UHGV virus genome: UHGV-0125821
DNA from: a virus
Length of the DNA stretch: 64,000 nucleotides
Strand: one strand, 5' to 3'
Shown piece by piece: positions 821 through 45,335 of this stretch. Position 1 is the stretch's first letter; every line of letters begins with the position of its first letter. A model generated the notes under the pieces. That model made no database searches and was not told the origin of the DNA. It was given only the letters and a program-made list of their open reading frames with translations. Position numbers and translations under genes: made by a program.

Positions 821-828
821 ACACAACA

Positions 829-2760: not shown

Positions 2761-2769
2761 CAGTAATCT

Positions 2770-3876: not shown

Positions 3877-4268
3877 TGTACGGGACTACCAAATTAAGCA
3901 CTCAACAGGCCACCAATATGGAGTGGTCTATCGCTAACTGTAAGATCGTGTCATGCAATGCCACGCGTACTGATGTGGGCCATAAAAGCACTATAACAGG
4001 CTATCTAGTAATGACCACCAGGGGGATGAGGGTTAGCTTTCGCTGGAAAGCAGAGCAAGTAACGCCATTCAGAGAGCCATCAATGCCGCTGCAGGTTGAG
4101 CAGGATTATCTATGTTTACCAGAAATAGATGGCGGAATGCTGGTGGAGTCTGATGGTAGTAAGGCTGATTTTGAAGCCAATTTGAAGCTGGCACAGGCCG
4201 TAATCAATAGTTATCGCGGAAAGTGGATCGCAAAAGTGAAACATGTTGTTCGTTTGTCTCGCTGGTAG
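3876..4268 (+). CDS. hypothetical protein
   Basis: ATG overlaps upstream stop (TGATG); no family recognised. Confidence 0.55.
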   Translation: MYGTTKLSTQQATNMEWSIANCKIVSCNATRTDVGHKSTITGYLVMTTRGMRVSFRWKAEQVTPFREPSMPLQVEQDYLCLPEIDGGMLVESDGSKADFEANLKLAQAVINSYRGKWIAKVKHVVRLSRW

Positions 4269-4376
4269 CGTTAGGTATTTAATATTAATTTTCTAATACA
4301 ATCATCTTTTTACCAGTCTATACAGTTTTAACATTCTCATTATCATCCCCTCGGTCATTTCCTGCCCGGGGGATTA

Positions 4377-4769
4377 ATGGAACAAATCAGCAGCGCAGAA
4401 ATTGCGGATATCATGATCAGGGCTGACTGCTATCTGACAGTCACTGAAATTACCACTCTCGCCAAAGAAAAATACCCTCATCTCCATGTTTCACGAGTAA
4501 GTGTAACTAACATCATTCGTCATTTTGTTCGTTCAAGCAGGGCAATCTGTGAGCTTGATGATCGTGTTTACCCACGAAAATACTGGTTGCATGGCCTGAA
4601 CGGATATCAGTTCAAGGTGCGTGGGCGAACCCCTGAATATGGCAGTTTACTGGTTAAAAACTGTAGCAGGAAATCAGTCGAACAGGCGCGAAAAGAGCAA
4701 CGAGAGCTGGTGGACATGGCGAATAAGCTGTGGAATGCCGCCGTTATAAAGCGTGGTGTTGCTTTATGA
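4377..4769 (+). CDS. hypothetical protein, Lpa-like by position upstream of terminase
   Basis: position only; stop overlaps pacA-like start (ATGA). Confidence 0.5.
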   Translation: MEQISSAEIADIMIRADCYLTVTEITTLAKEKYPHLHVSRVSVTNIIRHFVRSSRAICELDDRVYPRKYWLHGLNGYQFKVRGRTPEYGSLLVKNCSRKSVEQARKEQRELVDMANKLWNAAVIKRGVAL

Positions 4770-7638: not shown

Positions 7639-7665
7639 AGCCCCGCGATGCGGGGCCGGTTGTGA

Positions 7666-8703
7666 TTACCAGAGCTTCGCGGCGTACTGCGTTTGGGGGA
7701 ATGTGTATCCGTAACGTTCTTCGATTGCTTTGCCGTATTTTTTACGAGCTTCATTCAGTTTAATGCCGGTCAGGTCGTCTCCAGAGGCCATCATTACGTC
7801 TAACAATTCCAGATCCATTTTATCCAGCCTTGCCATTGCTTCACGTGATGTACGTATCTTACGCTCAATGATATGGCGAATAGCCGGATCGGCATCCTCC
7901 AGCATCTTAGCGGATTTCTGCTTAAGGCTTTCATTGCGAATATCGATGTTCCTTAAGATGTACGACTTCGCAACGTAGCTTGGCTGGTGTTTTTCCAGGT
8001 CACGAACACGATATAAGTTAAAATCGCCGAGAAGGCTGCAAGGTACCGATTCGACGCCAGAATAAATTGTAATGCTCCGGCGTTCACCAACATTATTGAC
8101 AACGGGGATCGTTGTCTTCGGTAGTCTTGCGAAAACCAATGCACCATGTGCGCCAACTCTAAAGCGAGAAAGGGCATTGCTGCCTTCGATGTTTGTTGTC
8201 AGCACAACATCTGTATATGCCTCTTTACGCGCCCGGTAGATCTCGCCTTCAGGCTCAGCTTCAAAGAAGCGCTGTTCTTCTTCAAGATCGCCTACGATTT
8301 GAGAAAAAACCCTATTTTTCAGGCTTTTCTTTATGATTTTGTCGTATTTTTTTAGCAATTGTTCACGTGTAAATGTACGTGTTGTTGTAGCGCTTTGCAC
8401 AACGACATGCGTGCTTTGATTGGTGTCCTCAATGATGAATGGGATCGGAGAATATACAGACTCAACAATGTTCGACGCTTTGCCGTCGGCATCGCGGCAC
8501 ATGTCAACGAAGGCTTTCCATTCAGCAAGACATTTTTCAGCTTCTTCTAATATGTTTTGGTCATGCGTTAATGCAACATGGCGGAATTCCTCGCCAGCAT
8601 AACTGGTATCATGGAAAACAGAGTTTGCGACCACCAGCTCTTTCCACCGTTCAGCGGTTTGCAGGAACCGTTTGTACTCTTTCTCGATCGACTTCTTACT
8701 CAT
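7666..8703 (-). CDS. hypothetical 345-aa protein at the position of the P1 c1 repressor
   Basis: antisense between pacB-like and rox/dre; operator-like motif 20 bp upstream of its start; function not established. Confidence 0.6.
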   Translation of the reverse strand: MSKKSIEKEYKRFLQTAERWKELVVANSVFHDTSYAGEEFRHVALTHDQNILEEAEKCLAEWKAFVDMCRDADGKASNIVESVYSPIPFIIEDTNQSTHVVVQSATTTRTFTREQLLKKYDKIIKKSLKNRVFSQIVGDLEEEQRFFEAEPEGEIYRARKEAYTDVVLTTNIEGSNALSRFRVGAHGALVFARLPKTTIPVVNNVGERRSITIYSGVESVPCSLLGDFNLYRVRDLEKHQPSYVAKSYILRNIDIRNESLKQKSAKMLEDADPAIRHIIERKIRTSREAMARLDKMDLELLDVMMASGDDLTGIKLNEARKKYGKAIEERYGYTFPQTQYAAKLW

Positions 8704-8718
8704 TATTCCTACTCGATT

Positions 8719-8738
8719 TAGTTTTCTAACATAAAATT
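8719..8738. promoter_or_regulatory. operator-like motif copy
   Basis: TTATGTTAGAAAACTAAATC on minus strand. Confidence 0.45.
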
Positions 8739-8914
8739 ACTATGACAAATTTATGTCGAATAACAGAGTGAGTAAAGGATCGAACTGTGATTTTTTGTCA
8801 TCAATTTTAGAAAACCAACCGTAGAAACCACACTTCGCAAATTAAAGACCATGAAGGCAACGTGTTACTGGTCATCATCAATCTATGATGGGTTAAAAAA
8901 AAATCGGCATTTTA

Positions 8915-8946
8915 TAACTTTAAATAATTGGCATTATTTAAAGTTA
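8915..8946. other. rox-like recombination site
   Basis: TAACTTTAAATAATTGGCATTATTTAAAGTTA; reverse complement equals the rox sequence as I recall it. Confidence 0.85.
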
Positions 8947-8955
8947 GGCTATAAT
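8928..8955 (+). promoter_or_regulatory. sigma70-like promoter overlapping rox
   Basis: -35 TTGGCA (8928-8933), 16-bp spacer, -10 TATAAT (8950-8955), pointing toward dre. Confidence 0.45.
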
Positions 8956-9098
8956 CATGTGTAGATGAACAGTATTGACATCACTGAAAATACGTACCTC
9001 GAATCAAAGGCTTGTATTTTGAAAATTAACTTATAGCTACCCTGTCATTTTTATATTTTTCGCGTAGCATCATCTGTATATAGAGGTGAAATAGTTTC

Positions 9099-10127
9099 AT
9101 GAGTGAATTGATTATCTCTGGCAGTTCCGGTGGTTTTCTGCGCAACATTGGCAAAGAGTACCAGGAAGCCGCAGAAAACTTTATGCGGTTCATGAATGAC
9201 CAGGGGGCTTATGCGCCGAATACTCTGCGCGACCTCCGGTTGGTGTTTCATTCCTGGGCGCGCTGGTGTCACGCTCGCCAGCTTGCCTGGTTTCCGATCT
9301 CACCAGAAATGGCCCGCGAGTATTTTCTTCAGTTGCATGATGCCGATCTGGCTTCGACCACCATTGATAAGCACTACGCCATGCTTAACATGCTGCTTTC
9401 TCATTGTGGCCTTCCGCCACTTTCGGATGATAAAAGTGTTTCTCTGGCTATGCGGCGTATCCGGCGCGAAGCGGCAACGGAAAAAGGCGAACGAACAGGC
9501 CAGGCTATACCGCTGCGATGGGACGACCTGAAACTGCTCGACGTCCTGTTGTCCAGGTCAGAACGGCTGGTGGACCTGCGCAACCGGGCTTTTCTCTTTG
9601 TTGCATACAATACGCTGATGCGTATGTCGGAAATCTCGCGTATTCGTGTAGGAGATCTGGACCAAACAGGTGACACCGTCACGCTACATATTTCACACAC
9701 GAAGACAATAACGACCGCCGCCGGGCTTGATAAGGTGCTTTCCCGTCGCACTACTGCTGTGCTGAATGACTGGCTGGATGTTTCCGGGCTTCGTGAACAT
9801 CCTGACGCGGTGCTGTTCCCGCCGATACACCGTAGCAATAAGGCCAGGATTACGACAACGCCCCTTACTGCACCTGCAATGGAGAAAATATTCAGCGACG
9901 CCTGGGTGTTGCTGAATAAAAGGGATGCCGCGCCAAACAAAGGGAGATACCGGACGTGGACCGGGCATAGTGCTCGTGTCGGGGCCGCTATCGATATGGC
10001 TGAAAAGCAGGTGTCTATGGTGGAGATCATGCAGGAAGGAACCTGGAAGAAACCGGAAACACTTATGCGGTATCTGCGCCGTGGCGGTGTGTCTGTGGGG
10101 GCTAATAGCCGCTTGATGGATTCGTAG
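9099..10127 (+). CDS. dre: Cre-family tyrosine recombinase (Dre-like)
   Basis: blocks shared with Cre from memory: SWARWC, WFP, AYNTLMRMSEISRIRV, WTGHSARVGAAIDMA. Confidence 0.9.
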   Translation: MSELIISGSSGGFLRNIGKEYQEAAENFMRFMNDQGAYAPNTLRDLRLVFHSWARWCHARQLAWFPISPEMAREYFLQLHDADLASTTIDKHYAMLNMLLSHCGLPPLSDDKSVSLAMRRIRREAATEKGERTGQAIPLRWDDLKLLDVLLSRSERLVDLRNRAFLFVAYNTLMRMSEISRIRVGDLDQTGDTVTLHISHTKTITTAAGLDKVLSRRTTAVLNDWLDVSGLREHPDAVLFPPIHRSNKARITTTPLTAPAMEKIFSDAWVLLNKRDAAPNKGRYRTWTGHSARVGAAIDMAEKQVSMVEIMQEGTWKKPETLMRYLRRGGVSVGANSRLMDS

Positions 10128-10130
10128 ATT

Positions 10131-10148
10131 AAATTTCTAACACATCTT
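10131..10148. promoter_or_regulatory. operator-like motif copy
   Basis: GATGTGTTAGAAATTT on minus strand, just after dre stop. Confidence 0.45.
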
Positions 10149-10200
10149 TTTAGATTGATGTCTTTGCTGTAAAGTACCCTCGCCTATTTCGGAGGGTGCT

Positions 10201-10545
10201 TTGCAGAGTCAAATCACGGAATCAAGACGCTTTAAGGTGGATGGTTACACCGTAACCTTCGCTGCTGGTGTTAAGAACAGTCATGCTGTCGTTGTATTCG
10301 GCATCATGACCGGGCTTGAGGCCGTCCCTGTGTTTACCCTCGAAAAAAACTGGCGAAATCTGGAGGAAGCAGAAAGCTACGTCCGGAAAGTAACCATCAT
10401 TGCCGCCGAAAAACTCCTGGCCCACTATCAGGAAAATTATCGCACTATGGTCGAGAAGATTAATCTCGCTTTCACTCGCCCCACTACCGGCTTTATTGCA
10501 CCGGATACTAATGCAGGTCGCTATCCTGCAAGGGGGCGTCGGTGA
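10201..10545 (+). CDS. hypothetical protein
   Basis: ORF downstream of dre. Confidence 0.55.
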   Translation: MQSQITESRRFKVDGYTVTFAAGVKNSHAVVVFGIMTGLEAVPVFTLEKNWRNLEEAESYVRKVTIIAAEKLLAHYQENYRTMVEKINLAFTRPTTGFIAPDTNAGRYPARGRR

Positions 10546-11018
10546 AAACTTATTACCCATCTCTGAATTGTTACCCGTCTTCCTATCCAGGATTGTCCGG
10601 GAAGCTGTTAGCTCTATTAGCTAAAGCACCTACGGAATGGTTTAAGCCAGTCGTTATCAATCCACACTTCCTGGATTACGGATCTGTTCGCACTCGTAAC
10701 GAACTCAAAAACTTACTGGCGCATGGATTCATTCGACACCGTGCCGGTAAAGGCTATCAGTTATCGATTGCGCCAGAAGAGGCCGTGCGGCTATTCGCAT
10801 ATCGTGACAGCCAGACAAAAGCTCGGGTAATAGCTCAAATACTTCATAACGGCAGCACCTATGCCCGCCAGTTTGGCGGCGACACGTCGCAGTTCTTGCG
10901 GGCGGTGCGATCGCTGGAGGAGCAAGGAGTTATTGAAAGTTCCTGTCTTCCTGTTCCTACCGTTCCACATATCAAACGTCGGGTTTACACCTTCACGCAG
11001 AGAGCTAAAAAACAATGA
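10542..11018 (+). CDS. hypothetical protein
   Basis: coupled ORF (overlapping stop/start). Confidence 0.6.
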   Translation: MKTYYPSLNCYPSSYPGLSGKLLALLAKAPTEWFKPVVINPHFLDYGSVRTRNELKNLLAHGFIRHRAGKGYQLSIAPEEAVRLFAYRDSQTKARVIAQILHNGSTYARQFGGDTSQFLRAVRSLEEQGVIESSCLPVPTVPHIKRRVYTFTQRAKKQ

Positions 11019-11509
11019 TTTACGTAAAAGTGAAACGCCTACATCCGGCAGCAAAACTTCCAGCTTATGCCACCTCCGGATCGGCGGCGATGGATTTTGA
11101 GGCTGTTGAAATAAAACCATGTGTCGATAGCAATGGTGCAATTTCCTCAAGCTGGTGGGTATACACCGGACTGGCTATGGAGATCCCGCCCGGCTGGTGT
11201 CTGAAACTCTATCCGCGTTCCGGATTGGGCTGCAAAAAACATACTCGCCTGGCTAACTGCGTAGGAATTATCGACTCCGATTATCGCGGTGAAATCATGG
11301 CAAAACTGATTACAGATCCCGGTGGTGAAGGCGTTTGCCTCAAGCCAGGAATGGCGGTCATGCAAGGCATTTTTGAGCGTGTTGAACCGGTATCGCTGGT
11401 AGAAGTTGATGAACTCGATGAAACAGAGCGAGGCGCTGGTGGCTTTGGTAGCACATCGGAAGACCGCGTTGAAATCAAGCGTACACCGCTTCAGTACGCA
11501 AAGTTTTAA
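11015..11509 (+). CDS. dut: dUTP diphosphatase
   Basis: motifs PRSGLG, GIIDSDYRGE, RGAGGFGSTS. Confidence 0.85.
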   Translation: MIYVKVKRLHPAAKLPAYATSGSAAMDFEAVEIKPCVDSNGAISSSWWVYTGLAMEIPPGWCLKLYPRSGLGCKKHTRLANCVGIIDSDYRGEIMAKLITDPGGEGVCLKPGMAVMQGIFERVEPVSLVEVDELDETERGAGGFGSTSEDRVEIKRTPLQYAKF

Positions 11510-11523
11510 GTAGAGGAAGGATT

Positions 11524-12186
11524 ATGGTCAGCACTTTTCAGGTGTTCCCCAAATACAAATGCCACAGCATCATTCGGGCATCGAAAATCAAAGATATTGT
11601 TATTGTCGGCAAAGCTTATGCGCCCATTTTTGGCAGTATCGAAGTCGTTGAGCCAAAAGGAATGACGCTTCGTGTTGATGGTGTGTTCTTGGAAAAATTC
11701 CGACCGCAAATAGGAGGATATCTCGTCACTGCTGAAAATGGCTATCTGGTCTATGTGCCAGAGAAAGCATTTGAAAAATGCTATAGCCGGGTTAACGACG
11801 CCTCCGAAAATGGGGTATCGCTCAGCATTGAAGGTCACAATGGGGTGACATTCATTACAGCCAGGGACGTAACTATTTCTGCTGGCGGTATCGCTACTCT
11901 ACAAGAAGAAATCGACCTTGAAGCAGCCGACTTTTCTGACGCGCTGATGTGGCTGAAGGATGGCAAGAAAGTTGCCCGGCGCGGGTGGAACGGCGAAAAC
12001 CAATTCTGCTGGCTGGTTCCTGAAGGACAGTACCCGGCACGAATGGAAGCCATTAAGGGATATTTCCCCGGCGATCTCGTTCCGTATGGTGCTTATTTCG
12101 CCTTAAAAAATGCACAAGGTGTAGTTGTTCCGTGGTTGCCTTCTGTAGGCGACTTACTGGCATGTGACTGGTTTGTAGTGGAGTGA
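11524..12186 (+). CDS. hypothetical protein with DUF2829-like C-terminal domain
   Basis: ALMWLKDGKKVARRGWNG ... DLLACDWFVVE. Confidence 0.65.
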   Translation: MVSTFQVFPKYKCHSIIRASKIKDIVIVGKAYAPIFGSIEVVEPKGMTLRVDGVFLEKFRPQIGGYLVTAENGYLVYVPEKAFEKCYSRVNDASENGVSLSIEGHNGVTFITARDVTISAGGIATLQEEIDLEAADFSDALMWLKDGKKVARRGWNGENQFCWLVPEGQYPARMEAIKGYFPGDLVPYGAYFALKNAQGVVVPWLPSVGDLLACDWFVVE

Positions 12187-26031: not shown

Positions 26032-26135
26032 AATACTGACTGTTGCGCCCTGGCATTATCGTGGGGTATATTTCTACGGCACCTTAGAAAAACGGGTGCC
26101 GGGATTGGAACCCCGGATAATGCAAAAGGCGACAC

Positions 26136-26160
26136 AGACGCCGAAAGCGTCTTTTTTTTT
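26136..26160 (+). terminator. intrinsic terminator
   Basis: GACGC cgaaa GCGTC followed by T9. Confidence 0.6.
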
Positions 26161-26345
26161 GTGTCATGCCATCGCACAGCCATACGTAGCGTTTAGCTCA
26201 GAGATCAATGGTAGTGCTGGCTGGGCTGCCGAAAGGCAGGCCGGTTCCCTTTTGCGCCGGTAGTTCCAACCCAGTCAGTGCTACCGCCATTGAGATTGGA
26301 ACCTCACGCGGTAGCTCCTTAAATTAGCAAAAGGAGGCTGCCAAT

Positions 26346-35876: not shown

Positions 35877-36782
35877 ATGAGATCAGTCGCTTTCAAAAAT
35901 ATCTTCATCTATCGTCTTTCACGCGAAGTTAGCTGGGATACTGCAGAAGTAAATGCAGCCCTTAGCAAGTTTGTGTTTACCCCATGCGGTTCTCAGGATA
36001 TGGCTAAAGCTGGTTGGACCTCCGTTCTTGGTGACAACCTCACCCATGAATACCAGGGTTTTCTTCTGATACAGCATAAACGAGAGGAAAAAATCCTACC
36101 CTCTCAAGTGCTCAAAGAAGAGTTACAGAAAAAAATCCTGACACTTGAAGAAGAGCAAGACAGAAAGCTGAAGAAGACTGAAAAAGATTCGCTGAAGGAT
36201 GAAGTGCTTCACTCTCTGCTTCCTCGTGCTTTCACGAGAAAATCAGTCGCTAAAATCCTGATAGACCGAAGCAATCATCTGGTTTTTGTCGAGGCCAGCA
36301 GTGCTAAAAAAGCAGAGGATCAGCTGGCTTTGTTACGGAAATCGCTTGGCAGCTTGCCCGTTGTCCCCTTCTCTCCGAAAGACCCATTAGAACTGACCAT
36401 CACTGGCTGGATTAAAAATGGCTTCCCGAACGGTTTCCGTGCCGGTGAGGAAGCGACCTTAAAAGCATTGCTTGATGATGGCGGCGCGGTCCGCTGCAAA
36501 AAAGTGGACCTGCTATCCGACGAGATCATGAGTCATATAGAAGCTGGTAAGGTTGCAACCACAGTTGCGGTTAACTGGCAAGACCGTGCATTTTTCAGAC
36601 TGAATGACGATATGAGTATCAAGGCTTTGTCGTTCAGCGACGAATTGTACGACCAGAACGACGATATTGATCGAGAGGATGTTGCGCAACGATTTGACGC
36701 TGACTTTATCCTGTTTACTGCTGAATTATCCGCGATGTTCACTTCGCTGGTGGAGGCCGTTGGTGGTGAAGCTGAACGTTAA
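35877..36782 (+). CDS. rdgC: recombination-associated protein RdgC
   Basis: [14 protein letters not shown] ... [21 protein letters not shown] ... [18 protein letters not shown] parallels E. coli RdgC. Confidence 0.9.
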
Positions 36783-36795
36783 CAATAGACCTCTG

Positions 36796-37446
36796 ATGGT
36801 GAGTCTTTGTGATTTCACGGGGAAAATGGTCGCCCCCTGGCTGGAGCATGGTATAGATGCTGTTATCGTCGATCCACAACACGCAGAGACCAGAGATGAG
36901 CTGATGCAATCAGGCGCAGTTCTGACACGTATCAGTGCGATTATCGATAGTGATGAAGTTTATGCTTTTCTCCGAAATAATTTACAACGTATTGTGTTTT
37001 TAGCTGGTTTTCCGCCGTGCACGGACCTTGCTGTTTCCGGTGCGCGCTGGTTTGCGCATAAGGCTGACAAAGATCCGTTTTTCCAGTTCAAAGCAATGCA
37101 GGTTGTCTGGCAGTGTTATGACATTGCAAAGATGATCGGTTGTCCGTACATGATTGAAAATCCGGTCAGCAAAATATCGACATTCTGGCGTAAGCCAGAT
37201 CACATCTTTCACCCTTACTTCTTCACTGCATATTGTCAGGAAGATAACTACACCAAAAAAACATGCCTCTGGAGCGGCCAGGGCTTTGTCATGCCTGATG
37301 CCCTAATGGACGAATCATTAGGCAAGCCAGATAACAGAATCCATGCCGCGCCACCAGGGCCTGACAGGGCTAATTTTCGAAGTGCTACTCCACATGGATT
37401 CGCAAAGGCAGTTTTCGAAGCGAATAAGGGGGTGCTCTATGAGTAA
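36796..37446 (+). CDS. small C5-cytosine-methyltransferase-like protein
   Basis: FTG, GFPPC and ENP motif-like segments; too short for a full MTase; start set at MVSLCDF. Confidence 0.4.
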   Translation: MVSLCDFTGKMVAPWLEHGIDAVIVDPQHAETRDELMQSGAVLTRISAIIDSDEVYAFLRNNLQRIVFLAGFPPCTDLAVSGARWFAHKADKDPFFQFKAMQVVWQCYDIAKMIGCPYMIENPVSKISTFWRKPDHIFHPYFFTAYCQEDNYTKKTCLWSGQGFVMPDALMDESLGKPDNRIHAAPPGPDRANFRSATPHGFAKAVFEANKGVLYE

Positions 37447-38344
37447 ATCTATAGCAAGCATAGCCATAGAAAAACAGGATACGATGGCTGAAATTAGCTA
37501 TATGCGCACCATTCGGACTCCGGATGAATATGAGCGTCCGATATTCAAATGGGTAGGTGGTAAATTCTCAGAATTGCCTACAGTGCTTGAGCATCTACCA
37601 CACGGTAAGCGGTTAATAGAACCATTCGTTGGTGGCGGTTCCGTATTTACGAATGCAGGATTTTGCCACAACCTGCTTAATGATATTAACGGTGACCTGA
37701 TTAACTTCTATCAGACATTGCAGCGAGAAGGACATTCGCTCGTCACGCTGTCATATAGTTTTTTCCAAAATTACAACAACGCTGACGCTTACCTCGAAGT
37801 GCGTGAGGCATTTAACAGAGGAAAGTATGACCAGCTACATCATGCTGCCGCCTTTTTGTACCTTAATCGGCACTGTTTTAATGGCGTAACGCGGTACAAC
37901 CAAAATGGCGAGTTCAACGTGGGGTATGGCAAATACAAAGCGCCCTACTTCCCACATGCAGAGATGGAGGCATTTTTGGCTGATGACGTACTCAAAAACA
38001 CGTCCTTTGTATCAGGTGACTTTGCTGGCGTCATCGAGGCGGCTGGTGAAGGCGATGTGATTTTTTGCGATCCGCCGTATGAACCGCTGCCGGATACAGA
38101 AGGGTTTACCAGTTATTCAGGAAATAGCTTCCGTTTCGACGAACAGAAACGGCTGGTATCTCTATTGGTGGAAGCCCACCAGCGCGGCGCTAAGGTAGTG
38201 ATAACAAATAGTGGTGCGCCAAACATCCGTGAACTATATGAAGGAAACGGGTTTAAAGTACATCATATGGCAGCCAGACGGTCGGTGTCCTGCAAGGCGT
38301 CAACACGTGTAGTTGCTAACGATATAATTGCAATAATGAAGTAA
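37439..38344 (+). CDS. dam: DNA adenine methyltransferase (Dam family)
   Basis: FKWVGGK, EPFVGGGSVF, DPPY motifs; start set at MSKSIAS. Confidence 0.85.
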   Translation: MSKSIASIAIEKQDTMAEISYMRTIRTPDEYERPIFKWVGGKFSELPTVLEHLPHGKRLIEPFVGGGSVFTNAGFCHNLLNDINGDLINFYQTLQREGHSLVTLSYSFFQNYNNADAYLEVREAFNRGKYDQLHHAAAFLYLNRHCFNGVTRYNQNGEFNVGYGKYKAPYFPHAEMEAFLADDVLKNTSFVSGDFAGVIEAAGEGDVIFCDPPYEPLPDTEGFTSYSGNSFRFDEQKRLVSLLVEAHQRGAKVVITNSGAPNIRELYEGNGFKVHHMAARRSVSCKASTRVVANDIIAIMK

Positions 38345-38346
38345 AA

Positions 38347-38376
38347 AACGCCGCAGTAGCGGCGTTTACTTTTTTA
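38347..38376. terminator. bidirectional intrinsic terminator between dam and glnS
   Basis: AACGCCGC agta GCGGCGTT with T-runs on both strands. Confidence 0.6.
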
Positions 38377-38392
38377 TGTGGCGAAATACCTA

Positions 38393-40054
38393 TTAACCTA
38401 ACTTCGCCCAGGTATCACGCAGCCCAACGGTGCGGTTAAATACCGGTTTTTCCGCCGTAGAATGGCGGCTGTCGAGGCAGAAATAACCTTCACGCTCAAA
38501 CTGGAATGCTTTACCCGCTACCGCTTCTTTCAGCGACGGTTCAGCAAAACCCTGTTTGATCACCAGCGATTCCGGGTTAATCACCGACAGGAAATCATCC
38601 GCAGCACCTGGGTTCGGCACGCTGAACAGACGATCGTACAGGCGGATTTCAACCGGCAGCGCATGTGCCGCGCTCACCCAGTGAATAACGCCTTTCACTT
38701 TACGACCATCTGCCGGATCTTTGCTTAAGGTGTCGGCGTCATAAGTACAGAAGATGGTGGTGATATTGCCTTCGGCATCTTTCTCCACGCGTTCAGCCTT
38801 AATGACGTAAGCATTACGCAGACGCACTTCTTTACCCAGCACCAGACGTTTGTACTGCTTGTTAGCTTCTTCGCGGAAATCGGCGCGGTCGATCCAAATC
38901 TCACCGCTAAACGGCACCTGACGGCTACCCATTTCCGGTTTGTTCGGATGGTTCGGCATGGTGACCATTTCGCCTTCGCCCTGGTAGTTTTCGATAACCA
39001 GTTTCACCGGATCGATAACCGCCATTGCGCGCGGCGCATTTTCGTTGAGATCTTCACGGATGCAGGATTCCAGCGACGCCATCTCAATGGTGTTGTCCTG
39101 CTTGGTCACGCCGATGCGTTTGCAGAACTCACGAATAGAAGCCGCAGTGTAACCACGACGACGCAGACCGGAAATGGTCGGCATACGCGGGTCATCCCAG
39201 CCTTCAACGTGCTTGTCGGTCACCAGCAGGTTCAGCTTACGCTTGGACATCACGGTGTATTCCAGATTCAGGCGCGAGAATTCGTACTGGCGCGGGTGAA
39301 CAGGAATGGTGATGTTGTCCAGCACCCAGTCGTACAGGCGACGGTTGTCCTGGAACTCAAGCGTACACAGAGAGTGCGTAATACCTTCCAGCGCATCGCT
39401 GATGCAATGGGTGAAGTCGTACATCGGGTAGATGCACCACTTGTTGCCAGTCTGGTGGTGTTCAGCAAATTTAATGCGGTACAGCACCGGATCGCGCATT
39501 ACGATAAATGGCGACGCCATGTCGATTTTCGCACGCAGGCAGGCTTTACCTTCTTCAAAACCACCGGTACGCATTTTTTCGAACAGCGCCAGGTTCTCTT
39601 CAACGCTGCGGTCGCGGTACGGGCTGTTTTTACCCGGCTGCGTCAGGGTGCCGCGGTATTCGCGGATCTGTTCCGGCGTCAGTTCATCAACGTACGCCAG
39701 GCCTTTATTGATCAGTTCGATCGCATAGGCGTGGAGCTGATCAAAATAATCGGAGGAGTAACGGACGTTACCAGACCAGTGAAAACCTAACCACTCAACG
39801 TCGTTTTTGATCGACTCAACATACTCGATATCTTCTTTTACCGGGTTAGTGTCGTCGAAACGCAGGTTGCACTGGCCTTTATAGTCCTGGGCGATCCCGA
39901 AGTTCAGGCAGATAGATTTCGCATGACCAATATGCAGATAGCCATTCGGTTCCGGCGGGAAACGGGTATGTACTGTGGTGTGCTTACCACTGGCCAGATC
40001 TTCATCGATGATCTGACGAATAAAGTTAGTCGGGCGGGCTTCTGCCTCACTCAT
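38393..40054 (-). CDS. glnS: glutaminyl-tRNA synthetase
   Basis: 553 aa essentially identical to enterobacterial GlnS as recalled; last residues read KLG. Confidence 0.95.
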
Positions 40055-40225
40055 TGTGGATTCCTCAAAGCGTAAACTACGTATAACAGCGTATGATCTT
40101 ATAAGCCGAATAGGCTGACAACCACTAGTTGATTAGAAATTGCTTTCTATCGTTATTTCAATAATGAGCTTTTTCATGAAGCCCACTTTTGCGCATAAGT
40201 AAATTAATGACAAATGGTACACAAT

Positions 40226-40285
40226 TGGAACCAAAAAGGATGTAAAGGTGCACCAAATTAGTGGTGTATTGGTGCACCTTTGGTT
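40226..40285. repeat. GGTGCACC-type short repeats
   Basis: TTGGAACCA, GGTGCACCA, GGTGCACC downstream of parG-like gene. Confidence 0.4.
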
Positions 40286-40322
40286 CAAGACTTTTTAAGT
40301 TCTAAAACCAACCTGAAAGACT

Positions 40323-40610
40323 TTATTTTGCTTCCTCAGACTCCGCTAACATGAGGATAGCATGGCGGATCATATTCAATTTGCTGCGATTATGCTTTTT
40401 ACTTAACGCATCAAGTACCTGGTACTCGTATTCATTGAAACCAACACGAATAGATTTAAAATCACGTGGAGCGTCCTTATCGAGCACTTTGTTGTCTTCT
40501 GGTTGCTCACCTGGCACCAAATCAGCCTTACTGGCAAAATCCTCAATTCGGCGTTCAAGATCGGGGTCTTTTACTTCGGGGGCTTTTACCGATTTACGAG
40601 GCTTAATCAC
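40323..40610 (-). CDS. parG: ParG-like ribbon-helix-helix partition protein
   Basis: C-terminal RHH-like SIRVGFNEYEYQVLDALSKKHNRSKLNMIRHAI; coupled to ParF-like gene. Confidence 0.7.
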   Translation of the reverse strand: MIKPRKSVKAPEVKDPDLERRIEDFASKADLVPGEQPEDNKVLDKDAPRDFKSIRVGFNEYEYQVLDALSKKHNRSKLNMIRHAILMLAESEEAK

Positions 40611-41244
40611 TTAATAACTCCTTAACCAACATCTGGATTTCACCTTTAGCTTTCCCGTTGTCCATCTCAACAACGCCCTTCCCTTCAGCCATGCAATCGC
40701 GGTAAACCTTACGATCACGAATGATGGTTTTCAGCAACTTCAGTTGCGGATATTCAGCCAGGTACTCTTTGGCCTCATTGGTTTCATTCACAACCGGATT
40801 GGATGGGGCCATTGTTAAGACTGCGAACGCCTTAATGCTAGGATTAGGCATCAGGTCCAAAGCCTCTTCAAACACTTCAACAAAGTGTGCCAGCGTGTCT
40901 AAATCTGGTTGAGATGGTCTGAATGGGACCAACACAATATCTGCAGCGGTTATGCCTGTACGCATCTCTTTGCTATCGCGCCCGGCTGTATCAACAACTA
41001 CAAATTCATAACGCTTATCCAGATCGAGAAGTGTTTCTCGAATATTACCAAACTTCTGGACACAATGAATAACAGGAGAAACCTCTGCCGTGTTACGGTC
41101 AGCTGCCCAGCGGGCAGCTGTTCCTTGCTTGTCTGCATCTAGTAACACTACATCCTTATTTGCGCGGGCAAGCTCCGCACAGATGTTTACGCTTGTGGTT
41201 GATTTTCCACAGCCACCTTTTTGGCTGACTACCAATATAATCAT
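40603..41244 (-). CDS. parF: ParF-like (type Ib ParA) partition ATPase
   Basis: Walker A KGGCGKST; start set at ATG with SD GAGGAA. Confidence 0.8.
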   Translation of the reverse strand: MIILVVSQKGGCGKSTTSVNICAELARANKDVVLLDADKQGTAARWAADRNTAEVSPVIHCVQKFGNIRETLLDLDKRYEFVVVDTAGRDSKEMRTGITAADIVLVPFRPSQPDLDTLAHFVEVFEEALDLMPNPSIKAFAVLTMAPSNPVVNETNEAKEYLAEYPQLKLLKTIIRDRKVYRDCMAEGKGVVEMDNGKAKGEIQMLVKELLSD

Positions 41245-41404
41245 ATCCGTTCCTCGGTGTGATTTTGGTATCAAAACGGTTCCAGATAAGAGCCTTTTTG
41301 ATGCGGGACAGGCTCTATAATGGAGTCATGAATGTTTGGCAAAGTATAACATCAATCAGACCAAATACACCTTATATTGCATCCTATTTAACACGAAATC
41401 AGCC

Positions 41405-41485
41405 CCAAATTGGAACCAGATACAAAACTGCACCATAACAGCACCTAACTGGTGCCAGATAAACACCAATTAGGCACCATTAAGG
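41405..41485. repeat. centromere-like array of GG(T/C)(G/A)CCA motifs upstream of parF
   Basis: TGGAACCAG, TGCACCAT, GGTGCCAG, ACACCAAT, GGCACCAT. Confidence 0.45.
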
Positions 41486-41513
41486 CATAAAAAAGGCTGC
41501 AATTTGCAGCCTT
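41485..41513 (-). terminator. intrinsic terminator after parR
   Basis: AAGGCTGC aattt GCAGCCTT followed by T-run on minus strand. Confidence 0.55.
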
Positions 41514-41531
41514 AAACCAGCACATCTTCTG

Positions 41532-41876
41532 TCAATCAGGTAGAGAGTCAGCCAGATTGCGCGCCGACGCGCTTTTGGCAACAACTTGCTCCTTCACTGG
41601 CTCAATGGAGGCAGGGCGCTCCTCAACCGCAGCTGGTAGTTCCAGGAAGGATGCCAGCATTTTTCGGATCAGCTCCGGATTATTATCTTCGGTCAGCAGG
41701 GAAGCCAGTAATCCTGGAAGCCTGCTATCGACTTCTCCCAGCGCAAGCCCTGCCAACAATGCGGTTCTTGCCATATCGCTATGTTTTTTTATCTTCTCGC
41801 TCGCCGCCTTTTCATTAGCATAAGCCTCTGGGCGAAGATAAATCATCACTTTCTTACGTTCCTGAGACATGGACAT
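41532..41876 (-). CDS. parR: ParR/StbB-like centromere-binding protein
   Basis: ARTALLAGLALGEVDSRLPGLLASLLTE parallels R1 ParR. Confidence 0.7.
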   Translation of the reverse strand: MSMSQERKKVMIYLRPEAYANEKAASEKIKKHSDMARTALLAGLALGEVDSRLPGLLASLLTEDNNPELIRKMLASFLELPAAVEERPASIEPVKEQVVAKSASARNLADSLPD

Positions 41877-41883
41877 TACCTCG

Positions 41884-42864
41884 TTAACCGATTGCTTTCA
41901 GGCCATGAACAAGAGCAAGTTGCGGGTCATCCGCCACGAAGAAACGGTCATCACGAATATTAACTTGCTCGCGAATTGCATCTGCCACCAGCGGTGCGCC
42001 ACCACCGATCACCATGACATGCGTATATCCTTTAAAGTCGCCAATCACATCAAGAACGCGGGTACGCAGACGGTCAATGCTTGCGGCAATGGCCTTTTTC
42101 ACATCACCAATCGCTGATGGGTCATTGATATTGTCGTTCAGATAATCTTCATCGTGGCGGTTAATAATGAGCTGATCGACATTGTAATTTGACGTTTCGG
42201 TATTGGCTCTGGCAAGTGCTTGCCTTACTTCCCTGGTAACCAGAGAGACGCCAAGATTCGAATCGCCAAAAACACGGGAAACTGCCGTCATTTGCCCGGC
42301 GACCATTGAAACATCAAGGGTAGTTCCACCCAAATCGACGATAAGAACAGAATGGGCAGGGTTCAGATTGTCGCACAGGCCAATTCCTGCCGGAATAGAC
42401 TCCGGGCGTACCGTAACTTTCTTAATCGTGAACACATTGCCTTTATTCAGCGTGACGGGGCGCATAAGGCTGGCTTTCTTGCGCTCGATGTTATCGAGAT
42501 TGTATTGCGCGTCGTCGTCGTAAAACTCCGCCAGAGGCAGCGTGACCACAATTTCTACTTCCTGCGGCTCAATGCCACTTGTCAGCAGGGCATGGTGAAC
42601 AGCCAGGACGTTAAGCGGGCTGTATTGCCATTCCACGTTATTCGTCGGCAGAACATCTGGCGAGATCAAATCATACGAATACTTTTCGTCGTCAATGACA
42701 TAGTTAAACGGCTTGCCCGCACCAAATGTTGCTGACCATCCGCGCTTAAAGCTGTTAGGGCTGATGTGAGTGCGAGTTTCCCCGTCGTGCTCCCACAGCA
42801 TTTTGATATTGGTTGAACCATCATCGATAAAAATGCGCATCTTCTTGCTCCACTTCTGAGACAC
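41884..42864 (-). CDS. parM: ParM/StbA actin-like partition ATPase
   Basis: FIDDGSTNIK ... IVDLGGTTLD ... VMVIGGGA parallels R1 ParM. Confidence 0.85.
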   Translation of the reverse strand: MSQKWSKKMRIFIDDGSTNIKMLWEHDGETRTHISPNSFKRGWSATFGAGKPFNYVIDDEKYSYDLISPDVLPTNNVEWQYSPLNVLAVHHALLTSGIEPQEVEIVVTLPLAEFYDDDAQYNLDNIERKKASLMRPVTLNKGNVFTIKKVTVRPESIPAGIGLCDNLNPAHSVLIVDLGGTTLDVSMVAGQMTAVSRVFGDSNLGVSLVTREVRQALARANTETSNYNVDQLIINRHDEDYLNDNINDPSAIGDVKKAIAASIDRLRTRVLDVIGDFKGYTHVMVIGGGAPLVADAIREQVNIRDDRFFVADDPQLALVHGLKAIG

Positions 42865-42865
42865 A

Positions 42866-43020
42866 TTTGAGAATCAAAATGCAATTTTAAAAGAGAAGCA
42901 CCCAAAAATCCACACCAAAAGAGATAAAAAAGAGTGATTATTGAGTTCATTTTGAGAATATCTTAATCACCCAATGAATGATGGTCTGACAGTGAGATTT
43001 ATTTGAGAATGAATTGAGAA
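42866..43020. repeat. parC-like repeats upstream of parM
   Basis: at least four copies of TTGAGAAT. Confidence 0.45.
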
Positions 43021-43106
43021 TACAAAAATATTCCGAAATTTAACTCTCAGTTTGAATGACGAAATAACAAAGTGATGACAATAGGAGGATAACCAGGAGG
43101 TGAAGA

Positions 43107-43391
43107 ATGAGCGCAATAGCCACCAGCGACACCCTTTGTTCTGGTCACGGAGGATTTCCGCCGCGACTGGTAGCTGAAACTGTTCCCTGGTTCACCGTTA
43201 ACGGTAAGCCAATTGTTGTAGATGGTGCCATGTTTCCCAGTCACACTGACGGTAACAGTGCACATCCAGGGGCAGCTGTATCGACGCGAGTATGGTTTTC
43301 GATAGGTGGAAAGGGAGTTGTCTGTGTAGGCGATCCGCTTTCTTGTGGTTCTGTTATCGCCAACGGCGAGGATATTTTTCAGGTTGCATAA
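43107..43391 (+). CDS. PAAR-like baseplate spike-tip protein
   Basis: 94 aa, SD AGGAGG, Gly/His-rich PAAR-like pattern. Confidence 0.6.
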   Translation: MSAIATSDTLCSGHGGFPPRLVAETVPWFTVNGKPIVVDGAMFPSHTDGNSAHPGAAVSTRVWFSIGGKGVVCVGDPLSCGSVIANGEDIFQVA

Positions 43392-44194
43392 TGCTTGATT
43401 CAATAGGTGAAGTTAAAGCCTTCAAAATTCTGTCAGATGCCGGTATCTCTACACCAGAATCTATAACCATAAGCCGGGCAGCTTCTGTAAAAGCCTCATC
43501 GCTCGCCAGCGCCATACAGGGAATAGTTCACGCCGATAAAGCCTATCCTGATTCTGTTTCGGCCTGGACTACTCAATTGCTTGGCTTTTCTGAACAGCTC
43601 AATGAGGCCAGCAAAGCGTCTTCATTACTGGCTGATTCTCTTTCCCCATACACCAAGCCATCAGAGCTGTTACAGATGAAGATTGGCTGGGAATGCTACG
43701 TAAAAGGTAACGAGCTGACCCCCATACCTGCTTTCGCCCTTGTTGAGGGGATGGGGAATGTTTCCATTCCGCAATCTCTAACGGACGCATTGACGGCGCT
43801 AAAACTTGATGCTCTGAAAACCGCCATGAACGCCATTAACGCAAAAATAGAAGCTGCTGGAAGTGCTGGTGGTTATAGCAATGGTGGACAGGGTGGTGCT
43901 GGGGGCGCTCAGGCTCCAGTCATTACTCAGGATGAAATTGATGCTTTACGGGAAGCCGTGACAGCCGCCGAAGTTTTACTCTCCGAAATTAACTCAGCAA
44001 GTGAGAGTGTCGTAGCCCTTACAGGTCGCATTAAAACGTCAACCACTCAGGCAACCAAAGGTTTAGAGAACGCTGTCGCCATCACGTTAACTGGTTCTCT
44101 ACTGGATGATGCAGTAATGAGTCCGGCAATCAGTTTAATCATGCCACAAGGCGTTATCGATGCGCTCCAAAAGAACACCAAAAAGGAACAATAG
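43391..44194 (+). CDS. hypothetical protein
   Basis: start set at ATG overlapping PAAR stop (TAATG). Confidence 0.55.
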   Translation: MLDSIGEVKAFKILSDAGISTPESITISRAASVKASSLASAIQGIVHADKAYPDSVSAWTTQLLGFSEQLNEASKASSLLADSLSPYTKPSELLQMKIGWECYVKGNELTPIPAFALVEGMGNVSIPQSLTDALTALKLDALKTAMNAINAKIEAAGSAGGYSNGGQGGAGGAQAPVITQDEIDALREAVTAAEVLLSEINSASESVVALTGRIKTSTTQATKGLENAVAITLTGSLLDDAVMSPAISLIMPQGVIDALQKNTKKEQ

Positions 44195-44249
44195 CAACAC
44201 CACTTAGGAACACAAAAGGATGTGAATTGGTACATGTTTAACACCAAAA

Positions 44250-44723
44250 ATGAACCTGAAGAGGATGGTTTTGAAAAAGATAATTTTGATTGTAATTGCG
44301 CTTTTAGCCATTTCTGGAATTTACCGAACAACGACGGCAGTTATCGAACACATCAGGTATGTCCGATCGCTTGAAGACTCAAAATCACAACTGGAAAGCA
44401 CGAACAACACACTTTCTACCGCATTACAGTTAAGTGAGAACGCTCGCTCAGCCATGCTGACCGAAAACGAAAGAATTAAAGCACTGGAAAAGGAGTACCA
44501 GCGCAAAACAGCAGAACTGAATGCCAACCTAATCAAACAACGGGAGGAAAGCCAGAATGAAATCACTCGCCTTGAAAATGCGTTACGCCGTGCTGGGATT
44601 AACGATGTGCGTGTGCCTGATGACGTTATCAGGATGCAGCGGGAACGGGCAAAAGCCATCAACCAGCGTGCCAGTGAAAATTACCGTAGAAGCCACCAGC
44701 AGGCCGCAGGCAAATCTGATTGA
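44250..44723 (+). CDS. i-spanin (Rz-like)
   Basis: N-terminal TM helix then coiled-coil periplasmic domain. Confidence 0.65.
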   Translation: MNLKRMVLKKIILIVIALLAISGIYRTTTAVIEHIRYVRSLEDSKSQLESTNNTLSTALQLSENARSAMLTENERIKALEKEYQRKTAELNANLIKQREESQNEITRLENALRRAGINDVRVPDDVIRMQRERAKAINQRASENYRRSHQQAAGKSD

Positions 44724-44889
44724 TTACTCCCCTTGTTTAGTGCCAGAAGACACGCCAGTGCTGTTAAACAAGTATCCGACATACGCTGAACAGTTATTCA
44801 GCACGATCGACGAATGCAACCAACGAAACGCACTGAATAACCAAAGAAACAGGGAGATTTGGGAAGGGAAGGGGGATCAAGGCTCCTGA
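44557..44889 (+). CDS. o-spanin (Rz1-like lipoprotein) overlapping the i-spanin gene
   Basis: SD GGGAGGA; lipobox LSGC; Pro-rich; starts inside Rz-like ORF in +1 frame. Confidence 0.6.
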   Translation: MKSLALKMRYAVLGLTMCVCLMTLSGCSGNGQKPSTSVPVKITVEATSRPQANLIDYSPCLVPEDTPVLLNKYPTYAEQLFSTIDECNQRNALNNQRNREIWEGKGDQGS

Positions 44890-45335
44890 AGCCAGATGTC
44901 CTGGCTGTCAGCTTCTTCGAAACCGTGACAGACGTTAAAGTCACTCAAACGATACTGACGCTGACGGCCCCTATTTCGCTCATGCCAATGCATATATCCA
45001 CCAGCAAATGCCAGCGGACAATCGCTATAGTCTATGTAACCAATACCATTCCCCAAACGTGCTTCGCGCGCACCAGCTTTCCAGGACAGTAGAAAAGAGT
45101 CACGATCCGCCAGCATAACAACAAAATCGTCCGGATCTCCGATACAGTGAAGAATACCAGCCTTACATAACTGCTTGAGCGCTTTTGACTGGCTCAGGAT
45201 GTCTTCTCCGTAATACTGAAAACAATCATCAACAACAGCGGGATAGCCTGTCGGGGGATTCAGGCTGGCTGGTATAGCTGACGCGATCGCCAGCATTAAG
45301 CGATATTGTGTTTTTGATGGGTTAACGTGACTCAT
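44877..45335 (-). CDS. hypothetical protein
   Basis: 152-aa ORF. Confidence 0.55.
   Translation of the reverse strand: MSHVNPSKTQYRLMLAIASAIPASLNPPTGYPAVVDDCFQYYGEDILSQSKALKQLCKAGILHCIGDPDDFVVMLADRDSFLLSWKAGAREARLGNGIGYIDYSDCPLAFAGGYMHWHERNRGRQRQYRLSDFNVCHGFEEADSQDIWLQEP

Follow-up and report, generated by a model that had tools for sequence, protein, structure and literature searches.

In phage D6, a gene (orf62, gp065) is annotated as "glutaminyl-tRNA synthetase, similar to E. coli GlnS." All D6-like genomes carry glnS (Silva et al., 2019; PMC6799933), and the gene had been annotated and discussed in such elements before (Gilcrease and Casjens, 2018; PMC5800970; Silva et al., 2019). Its presence in these elements is therefore already known; it is a hallmark of the group and not the surprise that the preliminary description of this DNA had taken it for. 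A 2025 preprint surveying phage-plasmids does not mention glnS. A similar case is cysS on plasmid pBT1 of Salmonella Typhimurium ST313, where a housekeeping aminoacyl-tRNA synthetase is likewise duplicated on a low-copy extrachromosomal element; essentiality and down-regulation of the chromosomal copy were shown experimentally (Canals et al., 2019; PMC6333337). The cysS paralogues are 79% identical, whereas the plasmid and chromosomal glnS copies are 97-99% identical and recombine. On the E. coli chromosome, glnS (b0680) lies between nagE and chiP, and its promoter is reported to be repressed by Dam (Plumbridge and Soll, 1987; confirmed by RNA-seq, PMC12369378). An Enterobacter ludwigii plasmid (NZ_CP116349.1) also has a complete glnS with native promoter and terminator, but this is an Enterobacter-type allele (86.7%) beside two integrase genes on a non-D6 backbone with different junctions, and it is an independent event.

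The window analyzed here (64,000 nucleotides from virus genome UHGV-0125821) is a plasmid prophage of the phage D6 type with an intact bacterial glutaminyl-tRNA synthetase gene. D6 matches a 2.7-kb query with 100% coverage and 97.9% identity. The earlier label of P1-type plasmid is right as to the P1/D6 group, and D6-like is the more precise term. In D6 and D6-like prophages (e.g., pYU39_89), the same gene is found in the same position, between dam and the ParA-like operon, with the same junctions and the same 553-amino-acid product ending in KLG. Coordinates of the features are listed in Table 1.

Table 1. Features of the glnS locus in the window (positions of the whole stretch; strand + or -, or. 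where none applies).
Feature	Position	Strand	Basis and remarks
Dam-family adenine methyltransferase ORF	37343..38344	+	TIGR00571, 250 bits; convergent with glnS
Bidirectional intrinsic terminator, AAACGCCGC-TACT-GCGGCGTTT	38346..38367	.	Terminator scan of both strands; T runs on both strands
Tandem stops TAA-TAG	38390..38395	-	In-frame alignment of 3' ends
glnS coding sequence	38393..40054	-	ORF of 553 codons plus TAA stop; ATG start; end ...RDTWAKLG*
Gene-conversion tract in glnS (coding nt ~234 to 650-760)	39295..39821	-	Informative-site table
5' untranslated region with Shine-Dalgarno GAGGAA (40066-40061)	40055..40092	-	Alignment
Native glnS sigma-70 promoter	40093..40121	-	Promoter scan; aligned with K-12 glnS promoter
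5' edge of captured chromosomal segment	40122..40139	-	BLAST homology
AT-rich spacer from cassette to par-side repeats	40140..40195	.	Sequence comparison
par-operon downstream region with GGTnCC-like repeats and inverted repeat	40196..40322	.	Sequence
Partition genes: small ORF (40323-40610) and ParA-family ATPase (40603-41274)	40323..41274	-	NF041546 and D6 annotation

The glnS product scores 1066.9 bits against the NCBIfam equivalog TIGR00440 (cut-off 425.8 bits), matching profile positions 1-524 of 524. Residues 1-553 align to E. coli GlnRS structures (e.g., 1o0b, chain 1o0b_A, and 1gtr), the C-terminal anticodon-binding domains are present in a full-length architecture, and the catalytic motifs are intact, including the class I motifs HIGH (residue 41) and VMSKR (residue 268), which is the form that KMSKS takes in GlnRS. 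Nucleotide identity to E. coli chromosomal glnS is 97.0-98.9%. Codons 1-550 show 43 nucleotide differences from K-12 and only two amino acid changes, A163T, which is found in chromosomal alleles too, and D510E; at the C-terminus, V552L is followed by loss of E554. Crystallized E. coli GlnRS constructs stop at residue 547/548 (1nyl, 1euq), and the last three residues, where the tail is altered, therefore fall beyond the part of the fold that has been solved. The GC content of the coding sequence is 0.529, compared to 0.470 in the remainder of the window, and GC3 is 0.617, compared to 0.459 in other ORFs. These results bear out the preliminary description: the phage-plasmid has as cargo a complete enterobacterial (Escherichia-type) glnS that came from a chromosome and resembles host genes in composition.

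Some synthetase paralogues on mobile elements confer inhibitor resistance (mupA/ileS2 type) and are recognized by clear divergence from the sensitive housekeeping enzyme. With differences from K-12 GlnS limited to A163T, D510E, V552L, and the loss of E554, the window protein does not fit this pattern. A glutamine-rich phage proteome as the reason for the gene is also unsupported. Glutamine makes up 3.8% of the phage proteome (55 ORFs), so there is no obvious added demand for Gln-tRNA.

Positions 38345-40322, bounded by the stop codons of dam (38344) and of the small ORF in the par operon (40323), are occupied by glnS and its flanks. The gene is convergent with dam and lies downstream of the par operon in the same direction. 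The D6 annotation places the start of the dam equivalent at an internal start (~37439). The ATPase matches NF041546 with an E-value of 1e-47 and 162 bits, which is below the equivalog cut-off of 180 bits, so only assignment to the ParA family is supported. The repeat-rich region next to the partition genes includes a perfect 13-bp inverted repeat (AAAGGTGCACCAA, 40244-40256 and 40269-40281); it is plasmid backbone outside the glnS cassette, and relatives without glnS (L100-L102) have an analogous 140-bp repeat-rich intergenic region. The AT-rich spacer has no match in E. coli chromosomes, in 80 other genomes, or in the empty-site relatives.

The captured cassette is complete, spanning approximately 38346 to 40122/40139 (~1.78 kb), with the native sigma-70 promoter and Shine-Dalgarno sequence ahead of the coding sequence and the native terminator of glnS behind it. 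The predicted promoter consists of a -35 hexamer TTGTCA (40121-40116), a 17-nt spacer, and a -10 hexamer GATCAT (40098-40093) that includes a Dam site (GATC, 40095-40098). The plasmid copy shares with E. coli b0680 both promoter hexamers (-35 and -10, Dam site included), the Shine-Dalgarno sequence, and the type of terminator; it differs by three substitutions in the promoter spacer and by lineage-specific changes in the 5' untranslated region, such as A for G directly before the ATG. In BLAST comparisons, homology to the sequences upstream of glnS in Escherichia and Citrobacter begins 68 nt before the ATG (40122), and weaker similarity (AACTA) extends to about -85.

At the other end, the cassette adjoins the dam stop codon (38342-38344), and the terminator located there now also ends the convergent dam. 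This terminator is the native one of glnS and arrived with the gene. The same stem is found 20-30 nt past the glnS stop on chromosomes of Salmonella, Citrobacter, Kluyvera, Pseudescherichia, Enterobacter, Trabulsiella, Klebsiella, and Atlantibacter. Ownership by dam was considered because empty-site relatives also have a terminator after dam; it was rejected since their stem (GCCCC-N4-GGGGC) differs, while the window stem matches native glnS terminators at 25 of 26 positions. Unlike the loci of present-day E. coli and E. ruysiae, and unlike b0680 in particular, the cassette has no REP elements between the glnS stop and the terminator.

The product ends in KLG, where E. coli GlnS ends in KVGE, and the preliminary description had suggested that a junction might coincide with the end of the gene. 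When the 3' ends are aligned in frame, the plasmid codons AAG TTA GGT TAA TAG correspond to chromosomal AAA GTA GGC GAG TAA. The TAA stands in place of the ancestral Glu554 codon GAG (a nonsense change), and the TAG is at the position of the ancestral TAA stop, so V552L and the GAG-to-TAA change account for the altered terminus. Alignment of the 3' flanks with those of 13 enterobacterial loci led us to reject a junction at the stop codon, because homology runs on into the terminator that abuts the dam stop. The stem-loop that follows 26 nt downstream is the native terminator of glnS, which is conserved in Enterobacteriaceae, and the real 3' junction is ~45-50 nt beyond the end of glnS, at the dam stop codon. 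The 553-amino-acid product ending in KLG is encoded by every full-length D6-like copy examined except two of 554 amino acids: that of the E. fergusonii plasmid pEF-4, which ends in KVEG, and that of a plasmid-chromosome hybrid contig (L127), which ends in KVGE.

The search for the same insertion in related elements that had been proposed earlier was productive. Approximately 100 elements carry glnS with the same two junctions, which are always 1785 bp apart where both are present. The shared junction sequences (TTTCTAATCAACTAGTG|GTTGTCAGCC and GCGGCGTTTTTTAC|TTCATTATTGC) are identical in phage D6 and in 97-98 PLSDB plasmids. Both are spanned in 70 E. coli RefSeq plasmids (a collection that overlaps PLSDB), and the junction strings were found in IMG/VR (11 and 18 contigs) and in metagenomes (5 contigs). 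The left junction and the terminator/dam side are common to all 12 other D6-like alleles that were fetched (D6 included, window excluded); pEF-4 has both, with a full-length glnS end. Most D6-like plasmids listed carry an annotated intact glnS, and related plasmids without the gene show an empty site with the same dam-par arrangement.

This recurrence disposes of the earlier suggestion that the window is an assembly chimera or contains chromosomal contamination. The GC content and codon usage of glnS are unlike those of its flanks, as such an artifact would predict, but identical junctions occur in an independently sequenced phage and in ~100 complete plasmids that many laboratories sequenced from many hosts and countries, and the promoter and terminator flanks carry plasmid-lineage substitutions absent from chromosomes. 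We regard an artifact as practically out of the question.

A recent capture from the current host, also raised in the preliminary description, does not hold up either. The same junctions and the KLG terminus are shared by elements whose glnS differs by up to 5%, and KLG copies include those of pTB423 and of Salmonella-hosted elements. The promoter and 3' end carry lineage-specific substitutions, and Salmonella-hosted elements keep an Escherichia-type allele (97-98% identity) that is 85% identical to Salmonella's own glnS. Shared ends despite this divergence, together with the Escherichia-type copies in Salmonella, point to one old, inherited capture. Modern E. coli as the donor is unsupported. 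No E. coli chromosome is more than ~93% identical to the plasmid haplotype block (coding nt 191-420), and the REP elements of E. coli and E. ruysiae are missing from the cassette. The donor comparison covered 80 loci, a set outside which the chromosomes of E. albertii, E. fergusonii, and E. marmotae fall.

Within the coding sequence, plasmid glnS alleles are mosaics, and this detail is new. None of ~5,425 E. coli chromosomes carries the plasmid-specific haplotype; a search with it found 71 records with at least 95% identity, against 76 plasmid places, and the remaining 5,429 records were at 90-95%. In the window, a tract of the gene carries an ST2747-type allele like that of E. coli chromosomes in place of the plasmid-lineage haplotype. 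This segment has 1-2 differences to chr_ST2747, compared to 12-21 to other plasmid alleles, and the maximum chi-square analysis of the tract gave 0 of 2000 permutations. Chromosomal gene conversion explains why window glnS is 98.9% identical to some E. coli chromosomes and only 96.8% identical to D6, which lacks this tract and has another in the 3' half. Plasmid and chromosomal glnS copies demonstrably exchange sequence.

Such exchange raises the idea that glnS serves as a recombination handle, with 1.7 kb of near-identity available for RecA-dependent integration or chromosome mobilization. In one metagenome contig (L127, OFLS01000123.1), D6-like DNA continues into the chromosomal sequence that follows glnS, which would fit this idea, but the contig may be chimeric, misassembled at the repeat that plasmid and chromosome share, and the plasmid haplotype block occurs in no chromosome. 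The D6 par locus was found in 0 of 5,426 complete E. coli chromosomes, with all 101 matches on plasmids, and none of these genomes has a D6-like prophage integrated at glnS. A role as a handle is very improbable.

Phage morons are autonomous cargo genes. With its own promoter and terminator, a composition unlike the backbone, and absence from close relatives, glnS has the features of one. We consider it probable that glnS is a lineage-wide moron of D6-like phage-plasmids that provides a functional extra GlnRS. An ancestor of the D6 lineage captured the self-contained ~1.78 kb cassette a single time from an Escherichia-like chromosome, from a locus without the REP elements that part stop codon and terminator in today's E. 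coli and E. ruysiae. The insertion was into the short intergenic region between convergent dam and the par operon. Nearly all descendants have kept the gene intact, although gene conversion has repeatedly replaced stretches inside it with sequence from the glnS of the resident chromosome. It is probably transcribed from its own sigma-70 promoter, which has the Dam site in its -10 hexamer GATCAT and would be repressed by full methylation, as on the chromosome, with higher activity while phage DNA is unmethylated or freshly replicated. The 553-amino-acid product is predicted to be a fully active GlnRS; it would charge host tRNA-Gln because the element encodes no tRNA-Gln, and would thus supply extra GlnRS dosage proportional to element copy number. 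A selective benefit could be more charging capacity, either in the lysogen or while the phage grows lytically, or a host that comes to depend on the plasmid gene.

The dN/dS values against K-12 are 0.012-0.028 for all plasmid glnS alleles (computed without one error-rich record), but this is a weak sign that the plasmid gene is under selection, since chromosomal alleles, which are selected in their own right, supplied much of the variation. Gene conversion could keep even a useless copy intact. The gene could then be a neutral hitchhiker without selected function that persists between essential backbone modules, is repaired by conversion, and supplies dam with a terminator. Demonstrated conversion from the chromosome, the present use of the glnS terminator by dam, and a protein essentially equal to the host enzyme agree with this, and sister phage-plasmids with the same dam-par arrangement manage without glnS. 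Against it, glnS is intact in nearly all of the ~100 elements, including those in Salmonella, where the chromosomal copy is only 85% identical and a poor conversion donor. A useless 1.8 kb in a size-limited genome packaged by the headful mechanism would also be expected to decay or be lost. Neutral persistence is unlikely.

Among possible functions, addiction through an essential gene has the experimental precedent of plasmid cysS, and Silva et al. suggested it for D6-like glnS. The plasmid gene would be the working GlnRS, the chromosomal copy would be down-regulated, and plasmid loss would be costly. That glnS has its own promoter and is kept across the lineage is consistent with this proposal. 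However, 5,425 of 5,426 complete E. coli genomes, those of carriers among them, have a chromosomal glnS (at least 80% coverage), the promoters of the two copies are nearly identical with no sequence sign of repression of the chromosomal copy, and D6-like elements already have toxin-antitoxin systems. The near-identity of the glnS copies also sets them apart from the divergent pBT1 paralogues. Addiction is slightly less probable than neutral persistence. A fuller version, in which the phage-plasmid gene would be the working GlnRS of the lysogen, its Dam-sensitive promoter would act beside the phage Dam, and conversion would keep it matched to the host, is more doubtful still.

Essential translation genes are uncommon on phages and plasmids, and their presence raises the question of whether mobile elements manipulate core functions or create host dependence on them. 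Because glnS was already documented in D6-like elements, the value of this analysis is mainly clarification: one old capture brought in a whole expression cassette, and a point change accounts for the unusual C-terminus. A practical caution is that assemblers and plasmid typing can be misled by the 1.7-kb repeat that plasmid and chromosome share. With its exchange between plasmid and chromosomal glnS, the locus is a clean example from nature of an essential host gene and a phage-plasmid linked by gene conversion.

Most of the 1,978 bp between the genes flanking glnS in UHGV-0125821 is taken up by the only long open reading frame listed there, and its sequence identifies the product as a glutaminyl-tRNA synthetase (GlnRS). 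The product covers the whole TIGR00440 profile (glnS equivalog) at 1066.9 bits (equivalog cut-off 425.8 bits), matches the crystal-structure chains of E. coli GlnRS along its entire length, and has both class I motifs, HIGH at residue 41 and VMSKR at residue 268. Over codons 1-550, 43 nucleotide differences from K-12 glnS result in two amino acid changes, A163T and D510E; A163T is also frequent among chromosomal alleles. GC content is 0.529 in glnS versus 0.470 in the remaining window, and GC3 is 0.617 versus 0.459 outside the gene. The preliminary description of a complete E. coli-like glnS with host-like composition is borne out on both points.

Features of the glnS region in the window and segments of the glnS coding sequence
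Feature	Position	Strand	Details
Dam-family methyltransferase ORF	stop at 38344	plus	TIGR00571 profile match
Stem-loop AAACGCCGC-TACT-GCGGCGTTTTTT	38346-38367		glnS terminator, 26 nt beyond the glnS stops
glnS ORF	38393..40054	minus	553 aa, ATG start, end ...RDTWAKLG*
Shine-Dalgarno GAGGAA	upstream of glnS ATG, within retained segment	minus	sequence
-10 hexamer GATCAT	40098-40093	minus	promoter scan; includes Dam site
-35 hexamer TTGTCA	40121-40116	minus	promoter scan; followed by 17-nt spacer
Repeat-rich stretch, GGTnCC-like motifs	40196-40322		127 bp; between AT-rich spacer and par operon, downstream of par operon
Perfect 13-bp inverted repeat AAAGGTGCACCAA	40244-40256 and 40269-40281		within 40196-40322
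Small ORF and ParA-family ATPase operon	40323-41274	minus	profile search
glnS plasmid-type segment	coding nt 1-190		0 differences to D6, 3-4 to chromosomes
glnS chromosome-type segment (strain ST2747)	coding nt 191-900		2 differences in 710 nt, 19-39 to other plasmid alleles
glnS plasmid-type segment	coding nt 901-1650		0 differences to pEHP91H1-2, 8-23 to E. coli chromosomes

Phage D6 matches a 2.7-kb window stretch across both junctions at 97.9% identity over its full length, and its GenBank entry describes the product as "glutaminyl-tRNA synthetase, similar to E. coli GlnS". The same stretch occurs at coverage of at least 80% in 98 PLSDB plasmids (~90 kb; E. coli, Salmonella, Shigella) and in 70 plasmids from complete RefSeq E. 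coli genomes, the top match having 99.9% identity. Exact 25-27-nt strings spanning the left and right junctions were found in 11 and 18 IMG/VR contigs, respectively, and in five metagenome contigs, and they are 1785 bp apart in every contig having both. Because both junctions recur in phage D6, plasmids, and other contigs, the assembly chimera first considered is excluded, and the search for the same insertion in related elements gave a positive answer. In all tests run on position, junctions, and product, the window gene behaves as a D6-like glnS; it is the same feature as D6 orf62/gp065 and the glnS of pYU39_89-type plasmids, whose presence in D6-like elements is already known (Silva et al., PMC6799933). 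About 80% of E. coli plasmids with the D6 par locus keep glnS (76-81 plasmid places versus 101 par-locus plasmids).

A few D6-like PLSDB records have no annotated glnS coding sequence, and their glnS matches differ slightly in length. In pSa1423-160k (NZ_MK356558.1) the gene is full of indels and translation ends after 56 aa. In NZ_CP031917.1, CP088384.1, and CP042632.1 the match lacks 5 nt or has 1 extra nt relative to the query. The differences in these records probably stem from sequencing errors or the occasional pseudogene. The window also has P1/D6-type features, namely four tRNA genes at 667-2845 (Asn-GTT, Thr-TGT, Ser-TGA, Met-CAT) and a C4 antisense RNA (26204-26291) preceded by an isrK-like RNA (26079-26157), a pair typical of the P1-type immunity region. 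As in D6, its methyltransferase region (36667-38344) is divided between ORFs at 36667-37446 and 37343-38344, which overlap; a single fused Dam-family gene of ~2.3-2.6 kb is present instead in some relatives, such as pKY1497_2 and the glnS-less relative L102 (positions 1264-3828).

Cassette limits were determined by aligning the window, D6, 11 further D6-like plasmids, six E. coli chromosomes, E. ruysiae, and Salmonella. Similarity to chromosomal glnS starts 68-85 nt before the ATG (40122-40139), just beyond the -35 hexamer, and the retained promoter is the native glnS promoter with a Dam site in its -10 hexamer. At the 3' end, the codons align in frame (plasmid AAG TTA GGT TAA TAG, chromosome AAA GTA GGC GAG TAA), giving V552L and a Glu554-to-stop change, with the ancestral stop persisting as TAG. 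Homology continues to the terminator, so the junction once placed at the last glnS codons does not lie there. The same terminator is found 20-30 nt past the glnS stop in Salmonella, Citrobacter, Kluyvera, Pseudescherichia, Enterobacter, Trabulsiella, Klebsiella, and Atlantibacter, while REP element insertions push it away from the stop in E. coli and E. ruysiae (198 nt in K-12). The donor locus had none of the REP elements that E. coli carries today. The 5' similarity limit, the conserved terminator, and an untruncated gene in the same cassette of pEF-4 together show that the unit runs from native promoter to native terminator (~38346 to 40122/40139), with its 3' edge adjoining the dam stop codon. 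The altered tail is unlikely to matter, since PDB constructs of GlnRS stop at residue 547/548 and the natural end of Kluyvera GlnS comes five residues sooner.

A 7-kb query revealed the empty site in related plasmids, three of which were compared with the window. These plasmids have rdgC, dam, small ORF/ParA, and ParM in the same order but are ~1.8 kb shorter. In the three glnS-less relatives, dam is followed by its own, distinct terminator (GCCCC-N4-GGGGC), then ~140 bp of GGTnCC-like repeats and the par operon; similarity to the window ends at 38352-38367 and restarts at 40325. On the cassette side of the window repeats lies ~56 bp of AT-rich DNA (40140-40195) that matches neither E. coli chromosomes, 80 other genomes, nor the empty-site relatives, and the repeat stretch itself could be a partition site or par terminator. 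One glnS-less relative (NZ_CP104667.1) has 97% identity to the window in the small-ORF/ParA region versus 73% in the dam region, which indicates that the par and dam modules flanking the glnS site recombine independently.

The left junction is common to all D6-like copies, as are the terminator/dam side and four promoter substitutions (three in the spacer, one beside the ATG), and every full-length copy other than pEF-4 ends in KLG. Salmonella-hosted elements share these features (Salmonella's own glnS has 85% identity), and the junction and promoter features extend to the divergent sub-lineages pTB423 and pEF-4 (~95% identity). This distribution argues for one old capture inherited by the lineage, and against the recent host-gene capture initially proposed. 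The E. fergusonii plasmid pEF-4 (NZ_CP137859.1, locus 3001-4665) has the same cassette and terminator with an untruncated 554-aa glnS ending in KVEG; its allele, ~95% identical to all others, may reflect conversion by the E. fergusonii chromosome or an older state. An Enterobacter-type glnS (86.7% identity, 555 aa) on an unrelated 133-kb E. ludwigii plasmid (NZ_CP116349.1, locus 715-5929) is an independent case; it has native promoter and terminator and adjoins two site-specific integrase genes and dinQ.

Informative-site comparison showed that the plasmid glnS interior is mosaic. In most plasmids, coding nt 191-420 form a common block in which 16-19 of 230 positions differ from each sampled E. 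coli chromosome. When this block was searched against 5,426 complete E. coli genomes, 71 records had at least 95% identity (versus 76 plasmid places), the other 5,429 were all at 90-95%, and the first-ranked chromosome had 93.0%; the plasmid haplotype was thus on no chromosome among these genomes. The mosaic pattern of the window recurs in its nearest relatives, an IMG/VR contig and pCR-0543_3 (99.8% identity in the coding sequence and 99.9% across the 2.7-kb region). Two-breakpoint maximum chi-square analysis placed the window tract at nt 234-648/762, and D6 and two near-identical plasmids have another tract, with a K-12/O157-like 3' half (0/2000 permutations reached the observed value in each case). 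These results are statistical evidence for chromosome-to-plasmid gene conversion, and the tract explains why identity of the window gene to some chromosomes (98.9%) exceeds that to D6 (96.8%). The dN/dS ratio versus K-12 is 0.012-0.028, but its value as an indicator of plasmid-level selection is reduced because much of the variation was imported from chromosomal alleles. That glnS is a neutral hitchhiker kept intact by conversion is considered improbable.

In a 45-kb metagenome contig (OFLS01000123.1, locus 1767-11635), D6-like DNA equivalent to window 38397-45140, with a promoter junction and glnS body of plasmid type, continues into the chromosomal region found downstream of glnS in E. coli (chiP side); the glnS of this contig has the chromosomal end KVGE. 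Either a prophage integrated at glnS by homologous recombination, or assembly across the shared 1.7-kb repeat produced a chimera. A role for glnS as an integration handle is disfavored because the D6 par locus is on 0 of 5,426 complete E. coli chromosomes.

The expression cassette on the element is intact and self-contained, and the enzyme it encodes is essentially identical to host GlnRS. Deletion of dam or mutation of the promoter Dam sites derepresses chromosomal glnS (Plumbridge and Soll, 1987), and RNA-seq of a dam deletion strain agrees, with a log2 fold change of +1.08 (PMC12369378). Transcription from its own promoter would add GlnRS in proportion to element copy number, and expression would peak on DNA that is unmethylated or newly replicated, given the Dam site in the -10 hexamer and the adjoining phage Dam gene. 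Addiction of the kind described for pBT1-cysS, in which the host would depend on plasmid glnS, is considered unlikely; 5,425 of 5,426 genomes have a chromosomal glnS. A resistance-type paralogue is excluded by the near identity of the plasmid and host proteins. A glutamine-rich phage proteome also fails as a reason (3.8% Gln), and no tRNA-Gln is among the tRNA genes of the 64-kb window.

Beyond the published description, this analysis defines the cassette limits exactly, identifies the native, REP-less terminator and the Dam-site promoter, accounts for the KLG end, and adds the empty site and the statistical evidence for chromosome-to-plasmid conversion. These additions sharpen the known picture of glnS in D6-like elements and leave the kind of feature unchanged.
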